This document shows positions 1,882 to 11,709 of a DNA stretch of 11,722 nucleotides, in pieces; positions within the stretch are counted from its first letter, which is position 1, and each line of letters begins with the position of its first letter. The DNA comes from a virus (lineage: Duplodnaviria; Heunggongvirae; Uroviricota; Caudoviricetes), in IMG/VR virus record IMGVR_UViG_2713896897_000002. The stretch is one strand, 5' to 3'. A program made the translations under genes and the position numbers. The notes under the pieces were generated by a model, which saw only the letters and a list, made by a program, of their open reading frames with translations, did not search any database and had not been told where the DNA came from.

Positions 1882-2478
1882 ATGAACAAATCATTAACCG
1901 TTCTTCCTTCTGGCGAATACCCGACCATGAGCAGTCTTGAGATGGTGGATTACATTAATGCTGATCGGAAATCCAAAGCGGAGGCGGAGGGGCTTGCGTT
2001 CCCCTGTAAGAAATATCGCAAACTCGAACACCGCAGTTTCATGAAGAAAGTACCCAAGGTCCTCGGGGATGCAGCTGCAAAATTTTTTGCAACTGATACC
2101 TATATCAACGGAACAGGTGGTGTTGTGGAGAGGGATATTTGCAATTTTCCCAAGCGTGAAGCTTGCCTCATGGCAATGAGCTACAGCTATGAGCTTCAGG
2201 CGCAGGTGTATGACCACATGACTGAGCTTGAGGGTGGGAAGGAGATTAACCTTCTCGATTTCTCTGGCCTGACCGATATGGCAATCAGCGAAATGCAAAA
2301 CCGTGTCGCGGCTGCTGAGAAGTTCTCATTTGAAATGCACGGTCAAGCAGGTAGCGCTCTCATGACTCGTCGGAAGAAAGAGAAGAAGGCCATTAAAAAG
2401 GCTGAGCAGCTTGTGAAGGATCTTATTCAGTTCAAGCTATGTGACATGGGGGACTTCCCTGATGGTAAACCAGCATGA
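1882..2478 (+). CDS. rha: Rha-family phage regulatory protein (putative); accessory gene between lysis cassette and cos
   Basis: 198-aa ORF with AAAGGA upstream of ATG 1882. The N-terminal half (MSSLEMVDYIN...HRSFMKKVPKVL...YINGTGGVVERDICNFPKREACLMAMSY) fits the Rha pattern as I recall it. Position (after Rz, before the terminase small subunit) and size match the rha/orf201 genes of phi80 and P22. The C-terminal half is unrecognised. Assignment is from memory only. Confidence 0.55.
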   Translation: MNKSLTVLPSGEYPTMSSLEMVDYINADRKSKAEAEGLAFPCKKYRKLEHRSFMKKVPKVLGDAAAKFFATDTYINGTGGVVERDICNFPKREACLMAMSYSYELQAQVYDHMTELEGGKEINLLDFSGLTDMAISEMQNRVAAAEKFSFEMHGQAGSALMTRRKKEKKAIKKAEQLVKDLIQFKLCDMGDFPDGKPA

Positions 2479-2678
2479 CTCCGATTGATTTCATACATAA
2501 AAATGTAACAACCGAGTTAATAAAGCTTGGATACGACCAAAACGCGGCTATGACTGGCGCTGACATGGCGGTGGAACATTACCGCCGTTGTTCACAAGCC
2601 AGCAGAAAAGGCCGAATTTTCGATGACTGCCTGTACATTGCAAAACAGTGGGCAGGTAAACAGAAAGGGAAAAAATGA
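2475..2678 (+). CDS. Hypothetical small protein (67 aa), translationally coupled to the upstream gene
   Basis: ATGA start/stop overlap at 2475-2478. Basic C-terminus (GKQKGKK), no recognisable motif, AT-rich like its neighbour. Followed by hairpins at about 2695-2750. Confidence 0.45.
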   Translation: MTPIDFIHKNVTTELIKLGYDQNAAMTGADMAVEHYRRCSQASRKGRIFDDCLYIAKQWAGKQKGKK

Positions 2679-2912
2679 CAGTCTGAGAGCCACTTTCACA
2701 ACGGCTCTCCATTACAAAGCCCATCTACTGGTGGGCTTGATAATGGCTTATACCCTACACGGGATAACTTAACTGATATCCCTTTTAACGGATAAAGGTA
2801 TTCAGGCCTGACACATCATGCGCTGTATCGTCGCTGTATTTCCGCATTAACCATGACCGTAGCCCGACGGGGAACTCCTCTGCGCGAGCATGCAGGATGT
2901 TGATTCATTGCT

Positions 2913-2930
2913 GTGCGACCGTGGTCGCAC
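2913..2930. repeat. Perfect 8-bp inverted repeat with 2-bp spacer (GTGCGACC gt GGTCGCAC)
   Basis: Read directly from the sequence; lies about 85 bp upstream of cosN in the non-coding cos-proximal region. Confidence 0.6.
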
Positions 2931-2987
2931 GACGCTGGTCTGTAAGATATTGAATTTATTGAGAATGAACCAGAGCGCCTGCGGGTC

Positions 2988-3011
2988 CTTTCCGGCGATC
3001 CGGCAGGCTAC
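2988..3011. other. cosQ-like element (packaging termination signal) just upstream of cosN
   Basis: GGGTCCTTTCCGGCGATCCGGCAGGCTACG closely matches the recalled lambda right-end sequence GGGTCCTTTCCGGTGATCCGACAGGTTACG that immediately precedes the cohesive end. Confidence 0.7.
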
Positions 3012-3012
3012 G

Positions 3013-3024
3013 GGGCGGCGACCT
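3013..3024. other. cos: cosN: 12-nt cohesive-end sequence GGGCGGCGACCT (terminase nicking site; virion DNA ends)
   Basis: Exact lambda cohesive-end 12-mer, embedded in GGGGCGGCGACCTCGCGGTTTTTCACTATTTATGAAAATTTT, which closely matches the recalled lambda left-end sequence. Confidence 0.85.
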
Positions 3025-3199
3025 CGCGGTTTTTCACTATTTATGAAAATTTTTCAGGGAAAATCGTGTCGGTACTTCTCGAATATAACTTTTTGTTTTT
3101 TTTAATATTGCTTTCATAAAGGTCCGACATGAAAGTGTCCGAAAATGCCTTTTTCTGGCGTTTTCATGTCGGGCCTTGTATTTGATAATGGGGTGTTTT
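3025..3199. promoter_or_regulatory. cosB-like terminase small-subunit binding region with dyad repeats (diverged from lambda R sites)
   Basis: Lies between cosN and the Nu1 start. Contains GGTCCGACATGAAA (3121-3134) and its near-perfect inverted copy TTTCATGTCGGGCC (3163-3176), a third GTCCGA copy at 3137-3142, an overlapping small dyad CTTTCAT/ATGAAAG (3112-3135) and A/T tracts. It does not match lambda R-site sequence as I recall it. Confidence 0.5.
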
Positions 3200-3748
3200 A
3201 TGAAGGTTAATAAAAAGAGGCTTGCCGAAATTTTTAACGTGGACCCGCGGACGATTGAACGCTGGCAGTCTCAGGGGCTCCCTTGCGTCTCCAAAGGCAG
3301 TAAGGGCATTGAATCTGTATTTGATACTGCCATGGCAATTCAGTGGTATGCGCAGAGGGAAACTGATATCGAAAACGAAAAGCTCCGCAAAGAACTGGAC
3401 GATTTGCGTGCGGCAGCGGAGTCAGATTTACAACCCGGCACCATTGACTATGAACGCTACCGGCTCACAAAAGCGCAGGCAGATGCGCAGGAACTGAAAA
3501 ATGCCCGTGAAGACGGAGTGGTGCTGGAAACTGAACTGTTTACCTTCATTCTGCAACGTGTGGCACAGGAGATTTCGGGGATACTTGTGCGTGTGCCGTT
3601 GACATTACAGCGTAAATATCCGGACATTTCACCATCACACCTTGATGTGGTGAAAACTGAAATCGCGAAAGCCTCCAATGTTGCAGCTAAGGCCGGTGAA
3701 AACGTGGGCGGGTGGATCGATGATTTCAGACGCACAGAAGGCAGCTAA
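3200..3748 (+). CDS. nu1: Terminase small subunit (gpNu1-like)
   Basis: [28 protein letters not shown]... aligns along its whole length with recalled lambda Nu1 (MEVNKKQLADIFGASIRTIQNWQEQGMP...). Winged-HTH N-terminus. ATG at 3200 is preferred over the upstream TTG at 3176. Confidence 0.9.
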
Positions 3749-5648
3749 TGCAGCCGGTGCGATAGCTACAGGGCTTTTATCTCTCATTATTCCTGTTCCA
3801 CTGACGACAGTTCAGTGGGCCAATAAACATTATTACCTTCCTAAAGAGTCGTCTTATACCCCGGGGCGGTGGGAAACACTGCCGTTTCAGGTTGGCATCA
3901 TGAACTGTATGGGCAACGATCTGATTCGCACTGTTAACCTGATTAAATCTGCCCGTGTTGGTTATACAAAGATGTTGCTGGGAGTGGAGGCTTATTTTAT
4001 TGAGCATAAATCACGCAACAGCCTTCTTTTTCAGCCCACGGACTCAGCCGCTGAAGATTTTATGAAATCTCATGTTGAGCCAACGATAAGGGATGTTCCT
4101 GCATTGCTGGAGCTGGCTCCATGGTTCGGAAGAAAACACCGCGATAATACGCTCACCCTGAAGCGTTTTTCCTCCGGTGTGGGGTTCTGGTGTCTGGGTG
4201 GTGCGGCAGCAAAAAACTACCGTGAAAAATCCGTGGATGTGGTCTGTTATGACGAGCTTTCCTCGTTCGAACCGGATGTTGAAAAAGAGGGGTCGCCAAC
4301 CCTGCTGGGGGATAAACGTATTGAGGGCTCTGTATGGCCAAAATCCATTCGCGGCTCGACGCCTAAAATCAAAGGCTCCTGCCAGATCGAAAAAGCCGCT
4401 AACGAGTCGGCACATTTCATGCGTTTTTATGTGCCCTGTCCGCACTGTGGGGAGGAGCAGTATCTGAAATTTGGCGATGATGCCTCGCCTTTCGGTCTTA
4501 AGTGGGAGAAGAATAAGCCAGAAAGTGTTTTCTACCTTTGTGAGCATCATGGCTGTGTGATCCATCAGTCTGAGCTTGACCAGAGTAACGGGCGGTGGAT
4601 CTGTGAAAACACGGGCATGTGGACCCGTGACGGCCTGATGTTTTTCAGCGCCCGGGGTGATGAAATTCCGCCGCCGCGCTCCATCACTTTCCATATCTGG
4701 ACGGCGTACAGTCCGTTCACCACTTGGGTACAGATTGTCTATGACTGGCTGGATGCACTGAAAGATCCCAACGGCCTGAAAACCTTTGTGAACACCACGC
4801 TGGGCGAGACCTACGAAGAGGCCGTGGGCGAAAAACTCGATCACCAGGTACTGATGGATAAGGTTGTGCGTTACACGGCGGCGGTGCCTGCCCGGGTGGT
4901 TTATCTGACGGCGGGCATTGACTCGCAGCGAAACCGTTTTGAGATGTATGTCTGGGGATGGGCTCCGGGAGAGGAAGCCTTTCTGGTGGATAAAATCGTC
5001 ATTATGGGGCGTCCCGATGAGGAAGAGACGCTGTTACGTGTGGACGCGGCGATCAACAAAAAATACCGCCATGCAGACGGAACCGAAATGACTATTTCCC
5101 GTGTCTGCTGGGACATCGGGGGGATCGATGGCGAAATCGTTTATCAGAGGTCAAAAAAACACGGTGTTTTCCGGGTGCTGCCGATAAAAGGCGCATCTGT
5201 CTATGGCAAGCCGGTGATCACCATGCCAAAAACCCGCAATCAGCGGGGCGTGTATCTGTGTGAAGTGGGGACGGACACCGCAAAAGAAATTCTCTATGCC
5301 CGTATGAAAGCCGATCCCACGCCTGTGGATGAAGCCACGTCGTATGCCATCCGTTTTCCTGATGATCCGGAGATTTTTTCGCAGACAGAGGCGCAGCAAC
5401 TGGTCGCGGAAGAGCTTGTGGAGAAGTGGGAAAAAGGAAACAAGATGCGTCTGCTGTGGGATAAAAAGCGGCGTAACGAAGCGCTGGACTGCCTGGTGTA
5501 TGCCTACGCGGCATTACGTGTGTCCGTGCAACGCTGGCAGCTTGATCTGGTTGTACTGGCAAAATCCCGGGAAGAAGAGACGACCCGGCCAACCCTTAAA
5601 GAACTGGCAGCGAAGCTGTCCGGAGGAGTGAATGGTTACAGTCGCTGA
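3720..5648 (+). CDS. A: Terminase large subunit (gpA-like; ATPase/endonuclease)
   Basis: Strong collinear match to recalled lambda gpA ([25 protein letters not shown]...[22 protein letters not shown]...). About 642 aa. ATG at 3720 (MISDAQ...) overlaps the Nu1 3' end by 29 nt, as in lambda. The extension to 3678 is unlikely. Confidence 0.9.
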
Positions 5649-5838
5649 ACTGCAGGCGCTGCGTCAGGCGCGCCTTGATTTATTAACCGGTAAACGGGTG
5701 GTGTCGGTCCAGAAAGATGGTCGCAGAATTGAATATACGGCGGCTTCTCTGGATGAGCTTAACCGGGCGATCAATGATGCGGAGTCGGTACTGGGGACAA
5801 CCCGGCGTCGCCGTCGTCCGCTGGGAGTGAGGTTATGA
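5632..5838 (+). CDS. W: Head-tail joining / head completion protein (gpW-like)
   Basis: The 68-aa product [40 protein letters not shown]... matches recalled lambda gpW (…[22 protein letters not shown]…). It overlaps the A 3' end and is coupled to the portal gene by an ATGA overlap. Confidence 0.85.
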   Translation: MVTVAELQALRQARLDLLTGKRVVSVQKDGRRIEYTAASLDELNRAINDAESVLGTTRRRRRPLGVRL

Positions 5839-7427
5839 AACGAACGCCTGTCCTGATTGATGTGAACGGCGTTCCGCTTCGTGAGAGTCTCAGCTACAAC
5901 GGGGGCGGTGCAGGATTTGGCGGGCAAATGGCGGAGTGGTTGCCACCGGCGCAGAGTGCCGATGCGGCCCTGCTTCCCGCGTTGCGTCTGGGGAATGCCC
6001 GGGCGGATGATCTGGTGCGCAATAACGGGATAGCGGCCAATGCGGTGGCACTGCATAAGGATCACATTGTCGGGCATATGTTTCTGATTAGCTACCGTCC
6101 GAACTGGCGCTGGCTGGGGATGCGGGAGACCGCAGCAAAAAGCTTTGTCGATGAGGTGGAGGCGGCCTGGTCGGAATACGCCGAAGGGATGTTTGGCGAG
6201 ATCGACGTGGAAGGAAAACGCACCTTCACGGAATTTATCCGTGAAGGTGTGGGCGTTCATGCGTTTAACGGCGAAATCTTTGTGCAGCCGGTCTGGGATA
6301 CGGAAACCACGCAGTTATTCCGTACGCATTTTAAAGCCGTGAGTCCGAAACGGGTGGACACGCCTGGACACGGTATGGGGAACCGTTTTCTGCGGGCCGG
6401 TGTGGAGGTCGATCGATATGGCCGTGCCGTCGCGTACCATATCTGTGAGGATGATTTTCCGTTCTCTGGTAGTGGACGATGGGAACGGATCCCGCGTGAA
6501 CTTCCCACCGGGCGTCCGGCCATGCTGCATATTTTCGAGCCGGTGGAGGACGGGCAGACCCGTGGGGCTAATCAGTTTTACAGCGTCATGGAACGGCTGA
6601 AGATGCTCGATTCCCTGCAGGCAACACAGCTTCAGTCGGCCATAGTGAAGGCGATGTATGCAGCGACGATTGAAAGTGAACTTGATACCGAAAAGGCCTT
6701 TGAATATATCGCCGGCGCGCCACAGGAGCAGAAGGATAATCCGCTTATTAATATTCTGGAGAAGTTCTCCAGCTGGTATGACACGAATAACGTGACACTG
6801 GGCGGTGTCAAAATTCCGCACCTTTTCCCTGGTGATGATCTGAAACTACAGACAGCGCAGGATTCAGACAATGGATTTTCTGCGCTTGAACAGGCGCTGC
6901 TGCGGTATATCGCCGCCGGTCTTGGCGTTTCCTACGAACAGTTGTCCCGTGATTACTCGAAGGTCAGTTACTCAAGTGCCCGCGCCTCCGCCAATGAGTC
7001 GTGGCGCTATTTTATGGGGCGGCGAAAATTTATTGCGGCCCGGCTGGCCACGCAGATGTTTTCCTGCTGGCTGGAAGAGGCACTTCTTCGGGGGATTATT
7101 CGTCCGCCACGGGCACGTTTTGATTTTTATCAGGCGCGATCAGCCTGGTCACGGGCAGAGTGGATTGGTGCCGGAAGAATGGCCATTGACGGGCTCAAGG
7201 AAGTCCAGGAATCAGTGATGCGCATTGAGGCCGGACTGAGCACGTATGAGAAAGAGCTGGCGCTAATGGGCGAGGATTATCAGGACATTTTCCGCCAGCA
7301 GGTCAGGGAATCTGCAGAGCGGCAAAAAGCCGGACTCTCACGTCCGGTGTGGATAGCGCAGGCGTATCAGCAGCAGATAGCGGAGAGTCGCAGGCCGGAA
7401 GAGGAGACAACACCACGTGAGACGTAA
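5835..7427 (+). CDS. B: Portal protein (gpB-like)
   Basis: 530 aa; position and length match lambda gpB (533 aa); ATGA overlap with W. Confidence 0.85.
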   Translation: MKRTPVLIDVNGVPLRESLSYNGGGAGFGGQMAEWLPPAQSADAALLPALRLGNARADDLVRNNGIAANAVALHKDHIVGHMFLISYRPNWRWLGMRETAAKSFVDEVEAAWSEYAEGMFGEIDVEGKRTFTEFIREGVGVHAFNGEIFVQPVWDTETTQLFRTHFKAVSPKRVDTPGHGMGNRFLRAGVEVDRYGRAVAYHICEDDFPFSGSGRWERIPRELPTGRPAMLHIFEPVEDGQTRGANQFYSVMERLKMLDSLQATQLQSAIVKAMYAATIESELDTEKAFEYIAGAPQEQKDNPLINILEKFSSWYDTNNVTLGGVKIPHLFPGDDLKLQTAQDSDNGFSALEQALLRYIAAGLGVSYEQLSRDYSKVSYSSARASANESWRYFMGRRKFIAARLATQMFSCWLEEALLRGIIRPPRARFDFYQARSAWSRAEWIGAGRMAIDGLKEVQESVMRIEAGLSTYEKELALMGEDYQDIFRQQVRESAERQKAGLSRPVWIAQAYQQQIAESRRPEEETTPRET

Positions 7428-8922
7428 TCTTTCACACATTATTGCCGCAGCATTCAATGAACCGCTGCTTCTGGAGCCCGCCTATGCGCGGGTTTTCTTT
7501 TGCGCGCTCGGGCGCGAGATGGGGGCAGCAAGTCTTTCGGTACCACAACAGCAGGTACAGTTTGATGCTCCCGGAATGCTGGCTGAAACGGACGAGTACA
7601 TGGCCGGAGGTAAACGACCGGCCCGTGTTTACAGGGTGGTGAACGGTATTGCTGTACTGCCGGTGACCGGCACGCTGGTGCACCGGCTGGGTGGTATGCG
7701 GCCATTTTCCGGAATGACAGGCTATGACGGTATTGTCGCCTGTCTTCAGCAGGCAATGGCGGATAGCCAGGTGCGGGGCGTACTGCTGGACATTGACAGT
7801 CCGGGCGGGCAGGCCGCCGGCGCGTTTGACTGCGCTGACATGATTTACCGCCTCCGTCAGCAGAAGCCGGTCTGGGCACTGTGCAATGACACGGCCTGTT
7901 CTGCAGCCATGCTGCTGGCGTCGGCTTGCTCCCGACGACTGGTTACCCAGACATCCCGTATCGGCTCCATTGGCGTGATGATGAGCCATGTCAGCTATGC
8001 CGGTCATCTGGCGCAGGTCGGTGTGGATATCACGCTGATTTACTCAGGGGCGCACAAGGTGGATGGCAATCAGTTTGAAGCGTTGCCGGCAGAGGTTCGC
8101 CAGGACATGCAGCAGCGGATTGATGCGGCGCGCCGGATGTTTGCCGAAAAAGTGGCGATGTTTACCGGTCTGTCTGTTGATGCAGTCACGGGAACAGAGG
8201 CCGCCGTTTTTGAAGGTCAGTCTGGCATTGAGGCCGGGCTGGCGGATGAATTAATCAATGCGTCGGATGCCATCAGTGTGATGGCCACGGCGCTGAACAG
8301 TAATGTCAGAGGAGGCACTATGCCGCAATTAACTGCAACGGAAGCCGCCGCGCAGGAGAACCAGCGAGTGATGGGGATCCTGACATGCCAGGAAGCGAAA
8401 GGACGTGAACAGCTTGCCACGATGCTGGCAGGACAACAGGGCATGAGCGTTGAACAGGCCCGGGCGATTCTGGCCGCGGCGGCACCGCAGCAGCCGGTGG
8501 CATCCACGCAGAGTGAAGCCGATCGCATTATGGCGTGTGAAGAAGCGAACGGTCGTAAACAACTGGCGGCAACGCTGGCGGCGATGCCGGAGATGACGGT
8601 GGAAAAAGCCCGCCCGATCCTGGCTGCTTTACCGCAGGCGGATGCCGGACCATCACTCCGTGATCAGATCATGGCACTGGATGAGGCAAAAGGGGCTGAG
8701 GCGCAGGCTGAACAGCTGGCTGCCTGCCCGGGAATGACTGTGGAGAGCGCCCGGGCTGTGCTGGCTGCGGGATCAGGTAAGGCAGAACCGGTCTCTGCAT
8801 CCACAACCGCCATGTTTGAACATTTCATGGCGAACCATTCACCGGCAGCGGTACAGGGTGGCGTGCCACAGACGTCAGCAGACGGTGATGCGGACGTAAA
8901 AATGCTCATGGCCATGCCATGA
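7417..8922 (+). CDS. C: Head maturation protease / scaffold fusion (gpC-like, S49/SppA-type serine protease)
   Basis: The N-terminus RNLSHIIAAAFNEPLLLEPAYARVFFCAL matches recalled lambda gpC (RNLPHIASMAFNEPLMLEPAYARVFFCAL). GSIGVMMSH is the candidate catalytic-serine region. GTG start at 7417 follows GAGGAG (7401-7406) and overlaps the portal 3' end. Confidence 0.85.
   Translation: MRRNLSHIIAAAFNEPLLLEPAYARVFFCALGREMGAASLSVPQQQVQFDAPGMLAETDEYMAGGKRPARVYRVVNGIAVLPVTGTLVHRLGGMRPFSGMTGYDGIVACLQQAMADSQVRGVLLDIDSPGGQAAGAFDCADMIYRLRQQKPVWALCNDTACSAAMLLASACSRRLVTQTSRIGSIGVMMSHVSYAGHLAQVGVDITLIYSGAHKVDGNQFEALPAEVRQDMQQRIDAARRMFAEKVAMFTGLSVDAVTGTEAAVFEGQSGIEAGLADELINASDAISVMATALNSNVRGGTMPQLTATEAAAQENQRVMGILTCQEAKGREQLATMLAGQQGMSVEQARAILAAAAPQQPVASTQSEADRIMACEEANGRKQLAATLAAMPEMTVEKARPILAALPQADAGPSLRDQIMALDEAKGAEAQAEQLAACPGMTVESARAVLAAGSGKAEPVSASTTAMFEHFMANHSPAAVQGGVPQTSADGDADVKMLMAMP
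8320..8922 (+). CDS. nu3: Nu3-like scaffolding protein from an in-frame internal start within gpC
   Basis: Strong Shine-Dalgarno AGAGGAGG (8308-8315) lies 4 nt before in-frame ATG 8320 (…GGTMPQLTA…). The product is about 200 aa and corresponds in position to the lambda Nu3 start as I recall it (…GGRMTKE…). Confidence 0.5.
   Translation: MPQLTATEAAAQENQRVMGILTCQEAKGREQLATMLAGQQGMSVEQARAILAAAAPQQPVASTQSEADRIMACEEANGRKQLAATLAAMPEMTVEKARPILAALPQADAGPSLRDQIMALDEAKGAEAQAEQLAACPGMTVESARAVLAAGSGKAEPVSASTTAMFEHFMANHSPAAVQGGVPQTSADGDADVKMLMAMP
8359..8775 (+). repeat. Three tandem degenerate coding repeats (about 47-52 aa each) in the C/Nu3 scaffold domain
   Basis: Repeat units begin RVMGILTCQEAKGREQLATMLAGQQGMSVEQARAILAAA, RIMACEEANGRKQLAATLAAMPEMTVEKARPILAAL and QIMALDEAKGAEAQAEQLAACPGMTVESARAVLAAG, with their ATG codons at 8371, 8530 and 8671. 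Confidence 0.7.
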
Positions 8923-8958
8923 AGTCAGTGCTGACCATCAACAGGAGGTTTTTACAAT

Positions 8959-9306
8959 ATGGTGACGAAAACCATCACTGAACAGCGTGCGGAAGTACGT
9001 ATTTTTGCCGGTAATGATCCGGCTCATACCGCCACAGGCAGCAGCGGGATTTCCTCGCCAACACCGGCACTGACGCCCCTGATGCTGGATGAAGCCACCG
9101 GGAAACTGGTGGTCTGGGACGGACAGAAAGCCGGTAGTGCGGTTGGCATACTGGTACTGCCGCTTGAAGGCACAGAGACGGCGCTGACGTATTACAAGTC
9201 GGGAACCTTTGCGACGGAGGCAATCCACTGGCCTGAAAGTGTGGATGAACACAAAAAGGCCAACGCCTTTGCCGGCAGTGCCCTGAGTCACGCGGCGCTG
9301 CCGTAA
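8959..9306 (+). CDS. D: Head decoration protein (gpD-like)
   Basis: The 115-aa product contains NDPAHTATG…LTPLMLDEATGKLVVWDG…AVGILV…YYKSGTF…FAGSA, matching recalled lambda gpD (SDPAHTATAPGG…MTPLMLDTSSRKLVAWDG…). AGGAGG (8942-8947) precedes ATG 8959. Confidence 0.85.
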   Translation: MVTKTITEQRAEVRIFAGNDPAHTATGSSGISSPTPALTPLMLDEATGKLVVWDGQKAGSAVGILVLPLEGTETALTYYKSGTFATEAIHWPESVDEHKKANAFAGSALSHAALP

Positions 9307-9314
9307 CACGTTAT

Positions 9315-9334
9315 CAGGCCACCGCGGTGGCCTG
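9315..9334. repeat. Perfect 20-bp palindrome CAGGCCACCGCGGTGGCCTG (stable RNA hairpin) in the D-E intergenic spacer
   Basis: The sequence equals its own reverse complement; it sits 9 nt after the D stop and 30 nt before the E start; no following T-tract. Confidence 0.65.
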
Positions 9335-9363
9335 ACTGATTTCTGAATGAAAGGAACTGATTT

Positions 9364-10392
9364 ATGGGATTGTTTACGACCCGCCAGTTACTCGGTTATA
9401 CCGAACAAAAAGTTAAATTTCGTGCGCTGTTTCTGGAGCTGTTTTTCCGCCGTACAGTGAATTTCCATACCGAAGAGGTGATGCTGGACAAAATTACCGG
9501 AAAAACGCCGGTGGCGGCCTATGTCTCCCCGGTTGTTGAAGGAAAAGTGCTGCGTCATCGTGGTGGTGAAACCCGCGTGTTGCGTCCGGGCTACGTCAAG
9601 CCGAAACACGAATTTAATTACCAGCAGGCGGTTGAGCGCCTTCCTGGTGAAGATCCATCTCAACTGAATGATCCGGCTTACCGCCGTCTGCGTATCATTA
9701 CCGATAACCTCAAACAGGAAGAGCACGCGATTGTCCAGGTGGAAGAAATGCAGGCGGTAAATGCTGTGTTGTATGGCAAATACACCATGGAAGGAGACCA
9801 GTTCGAGAAAATTGAGGTCGATTTTGGCAGGTCGACGAAGAATAACATCACTCAGGGTAGTGGTAAGGAGTGGTCAAAACAGGATCGTGACACGTTCGAT
9901 CCTACACATGATATTGACCTCTACTGCGACCAGGCCAGCGGTCTTGTGAATATTGCCATTATGGACGGTACCGTCTGGCGTCTTCTGAATGGTTTTAAGC
10001 TGTTCCGCGAAAAACTGGATACCCGTCGCGGTTCAAATTCTCAACTCGAAACGGCAGTGAAAGATCTGGGCGCAGTGGTGTCCTTCAAGGGGTATTACGG
10101 CGATCTGGCTATTGTTGTGGCGAAAACGTCTTATATAGCAGAAGACGGTATCGAAAAACGTTATCTTCCAGATGGCATGCTGGTTCTGGGGAATACTGCT
10201 GCAGATGGGATCCGTTGTTACGGTGCCATTCAGGATGCTCAGGCGTTGTCCGAAGGTGTGGTGGCCTCTTCCCGTTATCCGAAACACTGGCTGACGGTAG
10301 GGGATCCCGCCCGTGAATTTACCATGACGCAGTCCGCGCCGCTGATGGTGTTGCCGGACCCGGATGAGTTTGTGGTGGTACAGGTGAAATAA
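9364..10392 (+). CDS. E: Major capsid protein (gpE-like)
   Basis: The 342-aa product is collinear with recalled lambda gpE (…PGYVKPKHE…AIVQVEEMQAV…KYTM…NNITQ…EWSK…KEKLDTRRGSNS…LETAVKDLG…YPK…TGDPAREFTM…QSAPLM…DPDEFV…). Confidence 0.9.
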   Translation: MGLFTTRQLLGYTEQKVKFRALFLELFFRRTVNFHTEEVMLDKITGKTPVAAYVSPVVEGKVLRHRGGETRVLRPGYVKPKHEFNYQQAVERLPGEDPSQLNDPAYRRLRIITDNLKQEEHAIVQVEEMQAVNAVLYGKYTMEGDQFEKIEVDFGRSTKNNITQGSGKEWSKQDRDTFDPTHDIDLYCDQASGLVNIAIMDGTVWRLLNGFKLFREKLDTRRGSNSQLETAVKDLGAVVSFKGYYGDLAIVVAKTSYIAEDGIEKRYLPDGMLVLGNTAADGIRCYGAIQDAQALSEGVVASSRYPKHWLTVGDPAREFTMTQSAPLMVLPDPDEFVVVQVK

Positions 10393-10400
10393 TCCGTGAG

Positions 10401-10430
10401 CGGGGGCGAAATGCCTCCGTGTCTTTTTTC
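10401..10430 (+). terminator. Terminator-like hairpin with T-tract after the major capsid gene (candidate attenuator)
   Basis: CGGGGGC (10401-10407), GAAAT loop, GCCTCCG (10413-10419, one G-U wobble), then GTGTCTTTTTTC. It lies between the E stop and the FI start. Confidence 0.4.
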
Positions 10431-10443
10431 ACAGGGGGCTGGT

Positions 10444-10818
10444 ATGGCAACGAAAGAGCAAAATCTGAAACGGCTTGATGAACTGGCCCTGATTCTGGGG
10501 CGTGAGCCGGATATATCCGGGAGTGCCGCAGAGATAGCGCAGCGGGTGGCAGAATGGGAAGAGGAAATGCAGTCATCCGGTGATGATGTACAGGTTATGA
10601 ATATGGATATCCGGGAGCGGGAAACCGCGGCTCATGATGTTCGTGAGGAAACATCCGGCGCGTTAACGCGCATCAGAGTTCTGACCTGCCTCCATCTCTG
10701 TGGCGTTGATGGTGAAACGGGGGAATCCGTTGAGCTTGCGGATGTTGGTCGGGTGATTCTGATTATGTCCTCAGATGCAAAAACACACGTTGATGGCGGA
10801 ATGGCTGTTTATGCGTGA
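10444..10818 (+). CDS. FI: DNA-packaging accessory protein (gpFI-like)
   Basis: The acidic product MATKEQNLKRLDELALILGREPDISGSAAEIAQRVAEWEEEMQ resembles the recalled lambda FI N-terminus in character and position. ATG at 10444 follows AGGGGG; the ORF-track start at 10396 is probably an over-extension. The stop overlaps the FII start. Confidence 0.7.
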   Translation: MATKEQNLKRLDELALILGREPDISGSAAEIAQRVAEWEEEMQSSGDDVQVMNMDIRERETAAHDVREETSGALTRIRVLTCLHLCGVDGETGESVELADVGRVILIMSSDAKTHVDGGMAVYA

Positions 10819-11164
10819 TTTTCAGAATGCCTTTGATGCCGCCCTTGCCGGGGTGGACAGTACGATTGTTGAAGTGATGGGCATCAGTGCGCAGTTCACC
10901 TCCGGTGCACAGCGTGGCGGCGAGGTTCATGGCGTTTTTGACGATCCGGAGTCGCTGGGTTTTGCCAGTAGTGGGATCCGTATTGAAGGAAGTAATCCGT
11001 CATTATTTGTGCTTACGGATACGGTTTGTGCTGTACGGCGTGGTGACACGCTGACCATTAACGGCGAGATGTTCTGGGTGGACCGTGTTTCTCCGGATGA
11101 CGGAGGGAGTTGTTATCTCTGGCTCAACCGGGGGCAACCACCTGCCGCCAGCCGTCGTCGCTGA
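10811..11164 (+). CDS. FII: Head-tail connector protein (gpFII-like)
   Basis: From ATG 10811 the 117-aa product MRDFQNAFDAALAGVDSTIVEVMG…GVFDDPES…GDTLTINGEMFWVDRVSPDDGGSCYLWLNRGQPPAASRRR matches recalled lambda FII (MADFDNLFDAAIARADETIRG…WVDRVSPDDGGSCHLWLGRGVPPAVNRRR) and its length. Confidence 0.85.
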   Translation: MRDFQNAFDAALAGVDSTIVEVMGISAQFTSGAQRGGEVHGVFDDPESLGFASSGIRIEGSNPSLFVLTDTVCAVRRGDTLTINGEMFWVDRVSPDDGGSCYLWLNRGQPPAASRRR

Positions 11165-11175
11165 CAGGGGGATGT

Positions 11176-11709
11176 ATGACCATCAGAGGTCTTGAGCAGG
11201 CCGTTGAAAACCTCAGCCGTATCAGCAGAACGGCGGTGCCCGGTGCCTCCGCAATGGCCATTAACCGCGTGGCCACAACGGCAATGAATCAGTCGGCGTC
11301 ACAGGTTGCCCGTGAGACAAAGGTGCGGCGAAAACTGGTAAAGGAAAGGGCCAGACTGAAAAAGGCCACGGTCAAAAATCCGCACGTAAAAATCATTGTT
11401 AACCGCGGTGATTTACCTGTCATCAAACTGGGGATACGGATCACCGGAAGTCCTCCCAACAGTACGCTACGGGCCGGTCAGCATCGTTATCAGCGGGCAT
11501 TTATCCAGCGATTAAAAAATGGTCGCTGGCATGTCATGCAGCGAGTGGCCGGGAAAAACCGTTACCCCATTGATGTGGTGAAAATCCCGCTGGCGGCGCC
11601 GCTGACCACGGCGTTTAAACAGAATATTGAACAGATACGGCGTGAACGTTTGCCGAAAGAGCTGGGCTATGCGCTGCAGCATCAACTGAGAATGGTAATA
11701 AAGCGATGA
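11176..11709 (+). CDS. Z: Tail assembly / tail completion protein (gpZ-like)
   Basis: From ATG 11176 (GGGGGA upstream) the product MTIRGLEQAVENLSRISRTAVPGASAMAINRVA… and its C-terminus WHVMQRVAGKNRYPIDVVKIPLAAPLTTAFKQNIEQIRRERLPKELGYALQHQLRMVIKR are near-identical to recalled lambda gpZ. Confidence 0.85.
   Translation: MTIRGLEQAVENLSRISRTAVPGASAMAINRVATTAMNQSASQVARETKVRRKLVKERARLKKATVKNPHVKIIVNRGDLPVIKLGIRITGSPPNSTLRAGQHRYQRAFIQRLKNGRWHVMQRVAGKNRYPIDVVKIPLAAPLTTAFKQNIEQIRRERLPKELGYALQHQLRMVIKR

Follow-up and report, generated by a model that had tools for sequence, protein, structure and literature searches.

The window analyzed here, a stretch of 11,722 nt of viral DNA, contains the 12-nt cohesive-end sequence of lambda, and this raised the question of whether the genome ends of the element lie at this place and which terminase would make them. 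A sequence-only reading of the same DNA had proposed a complete cos site at 2988-3199, composed of lambda-type cosQ and cosN and of a cosB unlike that of lambda, and had taken this combination for a chimeric packaging specificity.

The joined cos site and its sub-sites

The 12-mer, GGGCGGCGACCT, had a single exact match in the window, at 3013-3024 on the plus strand, as had been claimed. The chance expectation was 0.06 matches per shuffled window with one mismatch allowed. The GC content was 74% from cosQ through the 12-mer (2982-3024) and 35% in the 175 bp that followed (3025-3199), an A+T-rich segment ending at the small-terminase ATG at 3200.

When 2850-3760 was searched by megablast against phage sequences, it matched coliphage 21 at 98% in three independent records (M81255, X02501 and OL657228), and it also matched several isolated relatives. 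The identity with the phage 21 records was 98% over 2982-3760 (E = 0), and the window was 98-99% identical to coliphage 21 over 2982-11170. The virion-genome records of phage 21, OL657228 and X02501, both started at window base 3013, and the last base of OL657228 aligned with 3012. This agreed with the earlier proposal, which had placed the virion ends within the window.

The assembly therefore contains cos in its joined form, the state expected in a prophage and in a circularized or concatemeric phage. The earlier reading had named the first two of these forms and was supported, the third fitting as well. The 11.7-kb window contained no att site or host gene. Exact-pattern scans of the GTDB species-representative genomes with a 33-mer (2992-3024) and a 44-mer (3002-3045) gave no hit, and in no complete E. 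coli genome was 80% or more of 2300-3760 covered, so that both a prophage and a circularized phage fit.

The complete cos site, from cosQ up to the ATG at 3200, starts at 2982/2983 and ends at 3199. The right border proposed earlier was thus correct, and the left one, at 2988, clips cosQ by five bases. The sub-sites were placed by transferring the curated features of M81255 and OL657228 onto the window. They are given here with the terminase genes beside them.

2983-2989, plus strand: cosQ heptamer GGGTCCT, packaging-termination signal (OL657228 cosQ, 42902-42908)
3011-3026, no strand assigned: cosN nicking site, the unique exact match to GGGCGGCGACCT (3013-3024) with 2-bp CG flanks
3012/3013 (top strand) and 3024/3025 (bottom strand): cosN nicks by position, giving 5' overhangs of 12 nt
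3042-3056, plus strand: I2, annotated IHF-like site between cosN and cosB (M81255 196-210)
3062-3077, plus strand: R3 of cosB, AATCGTGTCGGTACTT, critical gp1 site (OL657228 50-65; M81255 216-231)
3086-3098, minus strand: I1 of cosB, IHF binding site (OL657228 74-86)
3119-3134, minus strand: R2 of cosB, AAGGTCCGACATGAAA, opposite in orientation to R3 and R1 (OL657228 107-122)
3162-3178, plus strand: R1 of cosB, TTTCATGTCGGGCCTTG (OL657228 150-166; M81255 316-331)
3184-3198, plus strand: putative I0, IHF-like site overlapping the gene 1 ribosome-binding site at 3190-3193 (M81255 338-352 and 344-347)
3200-3748, plus strand: gene 1, terminase small subunit (TerS), 182 aa (Pfam Phage_Nu1, E = 3.6e-82)
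3720-5648, plus strand: gene 2, terminase large subunit (TerL), 642 aa, ATPase motor and cosN endonuclease (Pfam GpA_ATPase and GpA_nuclease)

The cosQ heptamer had the same letters in the window, phage 21 and lambda. It lay inside the 'R4' box of M81255 (136-147), which maps to 2982-2993, with the top-strand nick about 24-30 bp downstream of it. The 16-bp cosN, CGGGGCGGCGACCTCG, was two-fold symmetric at 10/16 bp. A 12-mer flanked by CG and with partial two-fold symmetry agrees with the description of lambda cosN (PMC9026076).

In cosB, R3 occupied bp 50-65 counted from the left end; lambda has its R3 at the same position, with the letters AGGCGTTTCCGTTCTT. I1, which reads AAACAAAAAGTTA on the minus strand, had one mismatch to WATCAANNNNTTR, and no second site within 2980-3200 matched the IHF consensus with one mismatch or none. 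An unbiased repeat search returned a 27-nt inverted repeat (3119-3145 and 3151-3177) with R2 in its left arm, so that the R2/R1 inverted repeat was recovered independently of the annotation transfer. The cosB was tripartite, in the order R3-I1-R2 (inverted)-R1, with the 21-type core C(G/A)TGTCGG in its R boxes.

Packaging specificity

The circularized cos junctions of phage 21 and lambda were built and aligned to the window, with the following identities.

2982-3012 (cosQ to nick): 87% with phage 21; 90% with lambda (28/31)
3013-3024 (12-mer): 100% with phage 21; 100% with lambda
3025-3061: 100% with phage 21; 81% with lambda (30/37)
3062-3178 (cosB): 97.4% with phage 21; 59% with lambda

The context of the 12-mer was homologous to lambda on both sides, and cosB was not lambda-like, its R cores being C(G/A)TGTCGG against CGTTTCC in lambda. 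The sequence-only reading was right on both points. The site itself was that of phage 21.

There were zero base changes in I2, R3, I1, R2 and R1 relative to the annotated phage 21 sub-sites; I2 differed from lambda at two positions. Over 2982-3199 the window differed from phage 21 by eight substitutions (2995, 3002, 3003, 3008, 3112, 3114, 3116 and 3193) and one 1-nt deletion (the C before the ATG), all in spacers outside these five sub-sites. The base at 3193, within the annotated gene 1 ribosome-binding site, was G in the window and T in phage 21, phage 4A7 and Escherichia coli DA33135. Relative to the same three, the absence of the C directly before the gene 1 ATG shortened the spacing between ribosome-binding site and start by one base.

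The terminase small subunit was identical to gp1 of phage 21 at 180/182 residues, the changes being conservative (A30V and A179T). The recognition helix (residues 17-24) was RTIERWQS in the window and in phage 21, and RTIQNWQE in lambda; A30V adjoins wing residues. Neither A30V nor any of the differences in the cos DNA fell in an annotated contact site. This small subunit with the 21 helix was followed by a large subunit of the gpA family, identical to gp2 of phage 21 at 637/642 residues.

We interpreted 2982-3199 to be a phage 21-type cos in joined form, belonging to a lambdoid phage or prophage with its cognate terminase, with a probability of about 0.93. No feature of the sequence spoke against this reading. 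From the sequences, cosB and the small subunit appear to be a matched pair, and the predicted packaging specificity is that of phage 21, neither that of lambda nor a new chimera. Lambda specificity was rejected on the R boxes, which lack CGTTTCC, on the helix, which is not RTIQNWQE, and on the identities of 52% for TerS and 59% for cosB. The identity with phage 21 would place the virion ends at cosN and assign packaging to a 21-specific, not a lambda-specific, terminase.

Function of the site in the present element is expected from its likeness to the characterized lambda and 21 systems, from which the mechanism is taken (Feiss et al. 2015, PMC4669245; Murialdo and Feiss 2022, PMC9026076). A bend made by IHF at I1 would turn R3 and R2 to face each other, and a winged-helix dimer of gp1 would dock on both. 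The docked gp1 would anchor gp2 over cosN, where gp2 would make nicks staggered by 12 bp and leave a left end starting 5'-GGGCGGCGACCT at 3013. The terminase-DNA complex would then dock on the portal and package toward the right, and the terminating cut would be directed by cosQ, cosN and I2 of the next cos, independent of the specificity of cosB. Specificity of initiation would thus reside in how the recognition helix of gp1 fits the R boxes, with cosQ and cosN common to the lambda-like group.

The R3-I1-R2-R1 architecture and the IHF-bend model have been described (Murialdo and Feiss 2022, PMC9026076), and I2 has been reported to be necessary for efficient termination (PMC4669245). Lambda and 21 each package their own DNA more than 1000-fold better than that of the other (Feiss et al. 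2015, PMC4669245), an exclusion attributed to the differences in recognition helix and R sites, while the cosQ, cosN and I2 of lambda, 21 and N15 can functionally replace one another (PMC4669245).

As predicted, then, this cos would fix the genome ends and the packaging strategy of the element (cos type, 5' overhangs of 12 nt, left end at 3013), and the element would be expected to suit a 21-type and not a lambda-type terminase.

The best surviving alternative, which we considered unlikely, is that the site is a dead remnant carried by a defective (cryptic) prophage and that no virion ends are made here. The 218-bp cos (2982-3199), used as query against 5426 complete E. coli genomes, was matched in 1053 of them, about a fifth. 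The best match had 95-99% identity for 938 records (about 940/5426), and in 592 of the 5426 genomes one place covered at least 80% of the query. A site so common in E. coli chromosomes would fit a remnant. Many resident lambdoid prophages are defective, which also counts for this reading, and 21-like cos remnants adjoin the noh genes in E. coli K-12. The state of the replication, immunity and tail modules, moreover, is beyond what the 11.7-kb window shows.

On the other hand, all cos sub-sites were intact, and the window's ten packaging and head genes were each intact and full length, at 98.5-100% identity to phage 21, a viable phage. TerL and the W-like, portal, protease/scaffold, decoration, major capsid, FI-like and FII-like proteins were each full length within this range. 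The lysis cassette upstream was also intact. Isolated phages such as 4A7 and ev017 also had this cos, at 95% identity or above. The closest full-length cos matches were in a prophage of E. coli DA33135 and in the isolated phage 4A7; both share the left flank of the window, and their cos differed from it by only six substitutions and a 1-nt deletion. A near-identical cos and left flank in an isolated phage argued against a dead remnant.

The proposal of a new, chimeric specificity, in which a lambda nicking site is joined to a cosB read by a small subunit of uncharacterized specificity, fared considerably worse and was judged very improbable. It had in its favor the 59% identity of cosB with lambda and the different cores of the R boxes. 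In addition, 3003G and 3008C in the cosQ-cosN spacer are present in neither phage 21 nor lambda, but 41 IMG/VR contigs that bear other cosB types have them too. With phage 21 as the reference, the left and right halves of the cos are therefore closest to different relatives. However, R3, I1, R2, R1 and the gp1 recognition helix are the same as in phage 21, which is a known specificity. Since cosQ, cosN and I2 are interchangeable (PMC4669245), a different left half makes no new specificity. The proposal was rejected on this identity of the annotated sub-sites. What stood of it was the lambda-type nicking site with a non-lambda recognition site; the novelty did not, given the four phage 21 elements and the gp1.

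The weakest alternative, a cos of a phage-inducible island (PICI) that redirects the terminase of a lambda-like helper through the Rpp adaptor, has a superficial fit to a lambda cosN with a non-lambda cosB, in that PICI cos sites are described as having cosQ and cosN as in lambda-like phages and a wholly different sequence at the position of cosB (PMC9026076), but we gave it almost no weight and rejected it, as the cosB is phage 21's own, a lysis cassette precedes the site, and the window encodes TerS, TerL, portal, protease/scaffold, decoration, capsid and head-completion proteins.

Flanking DNA and the cos core in relatives

Upstream of the phage 21-type cos were genes for a holin, an endolysin and an Rz-like spanin and two small accessory ORFs. 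This gene order is that expected of a lambdoid late operon, reading across the joined cos.

A sharp mosaic boundary was observed at cosQ, where the homology to phage 21 and lambda begins at 2982. The DNA immediately to its left (2863-2981) had no detectable homology to phage 21 or lambda; its 42% identity with phage 21 is at the level of noise. By this comparison, the late-region right arm, left of 2982, with the lysis cassette and the accessory ORFs, belongs to a different lambdoid lineage. The same left-flank lineage was seen in phage 4A7, in E. coli DA33135 and in IMG/VR contigs with other cosB types.

At the other end, near-identity to phage 21 stopped at about 11170 and decayed within the gene for a Z-like tail completion protein (11176-11709, plus strand). 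This gene was a mosaic variant, coding for 177 aa where phage 21 has 192 aa, with 74% identity. Its ORF was intact, with a divergent central segment around 11433-11500 that was 45 nt shorter.

The two accessory ORFs lay at 1882-2678 on the plus strand, between the spanin gene and cos, a position at which lambda and phage 21 carry bor-type morons. The ORF of 198 aa weakly matched Ant or transcriptional-regulator families, as well as PHROG 26415, and that of 67 aa matched PHROG 4439, a family of unknown function. No Pfam domain was found in either. A near-perfect G+C-rich palindrome, GTGCGACCGTGGTCGCAC, was present at 2913-2930, about 55 bp upstream of cosQ. No T run followed it, and it is therefore not an obvious terminator.

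An ORF of 71 aa (2890-3105, plus strand) spans cosQ, cosN and R3. In RefSeq, related E. coli genomes have a comparable, non-identical ORF at the equivalent position, annotated as 'hypothetical protein'. The ORF had no PHROG family match and would be split in virion DNA, and for these reasons it is probably an annotation artefact in non-coding cos DNA. The practical value of the cos assignment lies in annotation, including the flagging of this ORF as probably spurious.

The left half of the cos was followed into other genomes. The exact 33-mer at 2992-3024, which covers the cosQ-cosN spacer and the 12-mer, was present in 41 IMG/VR contigs (loci L006-L046). To the right of it there were at least six types of cosB among the 41.

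Lambda type (CGTTTCC): 17 contigs
R core GGTGGTGGTGG: 9 contigs
R core GGTTGTTGT: 6 contigs
R core CATGTCCGG: 5 contigs
R core CAGATCC: 3 contigs
Variant of the 21 type: 1 contig

In the representatives examined, the N-termini of TerS differed between cosB types. The recognition helices co-varied with the R cores; RTIQNWQE was among them, one pairing was with CGTGTCGG, and the helix RTITAWQS was paired with the core CAGATCC. Loci L014, L015 and L023 are also among the examples of this diversity.

Two kinds of junction were seen. Loci L019 and L030 matched the window at 99.2% identity as far as 3058, and from there through 3829 they were unrelated to it. By alignment, these two have the left arm of the window joined to a different cosB and TerS. 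Loci L009, L016, L028 and L032 matched the window at 2983-3053 and again from 3794 on (about 95%), with no match between. They encoded a TerS of 169 aa with a different N-terminus, and the N-terminus of their TerL was different too. This looks like a cassette swap of cosB, the whole of TerS and about 25 first codons of TerL. The replaced part of TerL looks like its TerS-binding end, and the rest appears to be a 21-like head module.

The conserved cosQ-cosN-I2 core thus appears to behave as a mosaic joint. This agrees with the modular evolution of lambdoid phages, which has long been known. Tentatively, and with somewhat more doubt than belief, we suggest that the core (about 2982-3056) is a preferred crossover joint for cassettes of cosB, TerS and about 25 TerL codons among lambdoid prophages, and that some of the attached types are uncharacterized specificities in 21-like head modules. 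The candidates for the latter may be the core CATGTCCGG with the 169-aa TerS, and CAGATCC with RTITAWQS. The window itself may then be one product of cassette exchange.

A breakpoint in cosN (3009-3029) was considered as proof of joining by heterologous cohesive ends and was rejected. This interval is the longest run of perfect identity in the core, so that homologous recombination explains the breakpoint equally well. Furthermore, in the close relatives 4A7 and DA33135 the left flank of the window occurs together with the bases that phage 21 and lambda have at 3003 and 3008. The diversity of cassettes concerns the relatives; the window's own cos is of the plain phage 21 type.

Comparison with known systems

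Phage N15 resembles the window in having cosQ and cosN like those of lambda and an R3-like site about as far from cosN (PMC4669245). Its cosB consists of a single critical R site and an accessory rR2 inside the TerS gene, without an IHF site, whereas the cosB of the window is tripartite with I1. A simple cosB of the N15 type was rejected, as three R boxes and an IHF-consensus site are present upstream of the TerS gene.

Phage lambda shares the architecture of the window (cosQ, 5' cohesive end of 12 nt, I2 and R3-I1-R2 (inverted)-R1), with the same cosQ heptamer and 12-mer and with homologous terminase families (Phage_Nu1 and GpA). In contrast, the R-box cores are CGTTTCC in lambda and C(G/A)TGTCGG in the window, and lambda Nu1 is 52% identical to the TerS of the window, with the helix RTIQNWQE in place of RTIERWQS. 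With the same cosQ and cosN and divergent cosB and TerS, lambda and 21 are the classic pair of packaging specificities, genetically dissected for decades.

The cos of phage 21 (X02501, M81255 and OL657228) is the same as that of the window in the sequence, order, orientation and spacing of its sub-sites and in its 12-nt cohesive end, and gp1 and gp2 are 98.9% and 99.2% identical. The cos of coliphage 21, with its gp1/gp2 terminase, is the system characterized by the Feiss laboratory. It is thus already known, and the cos of the window is biologically nothing new.
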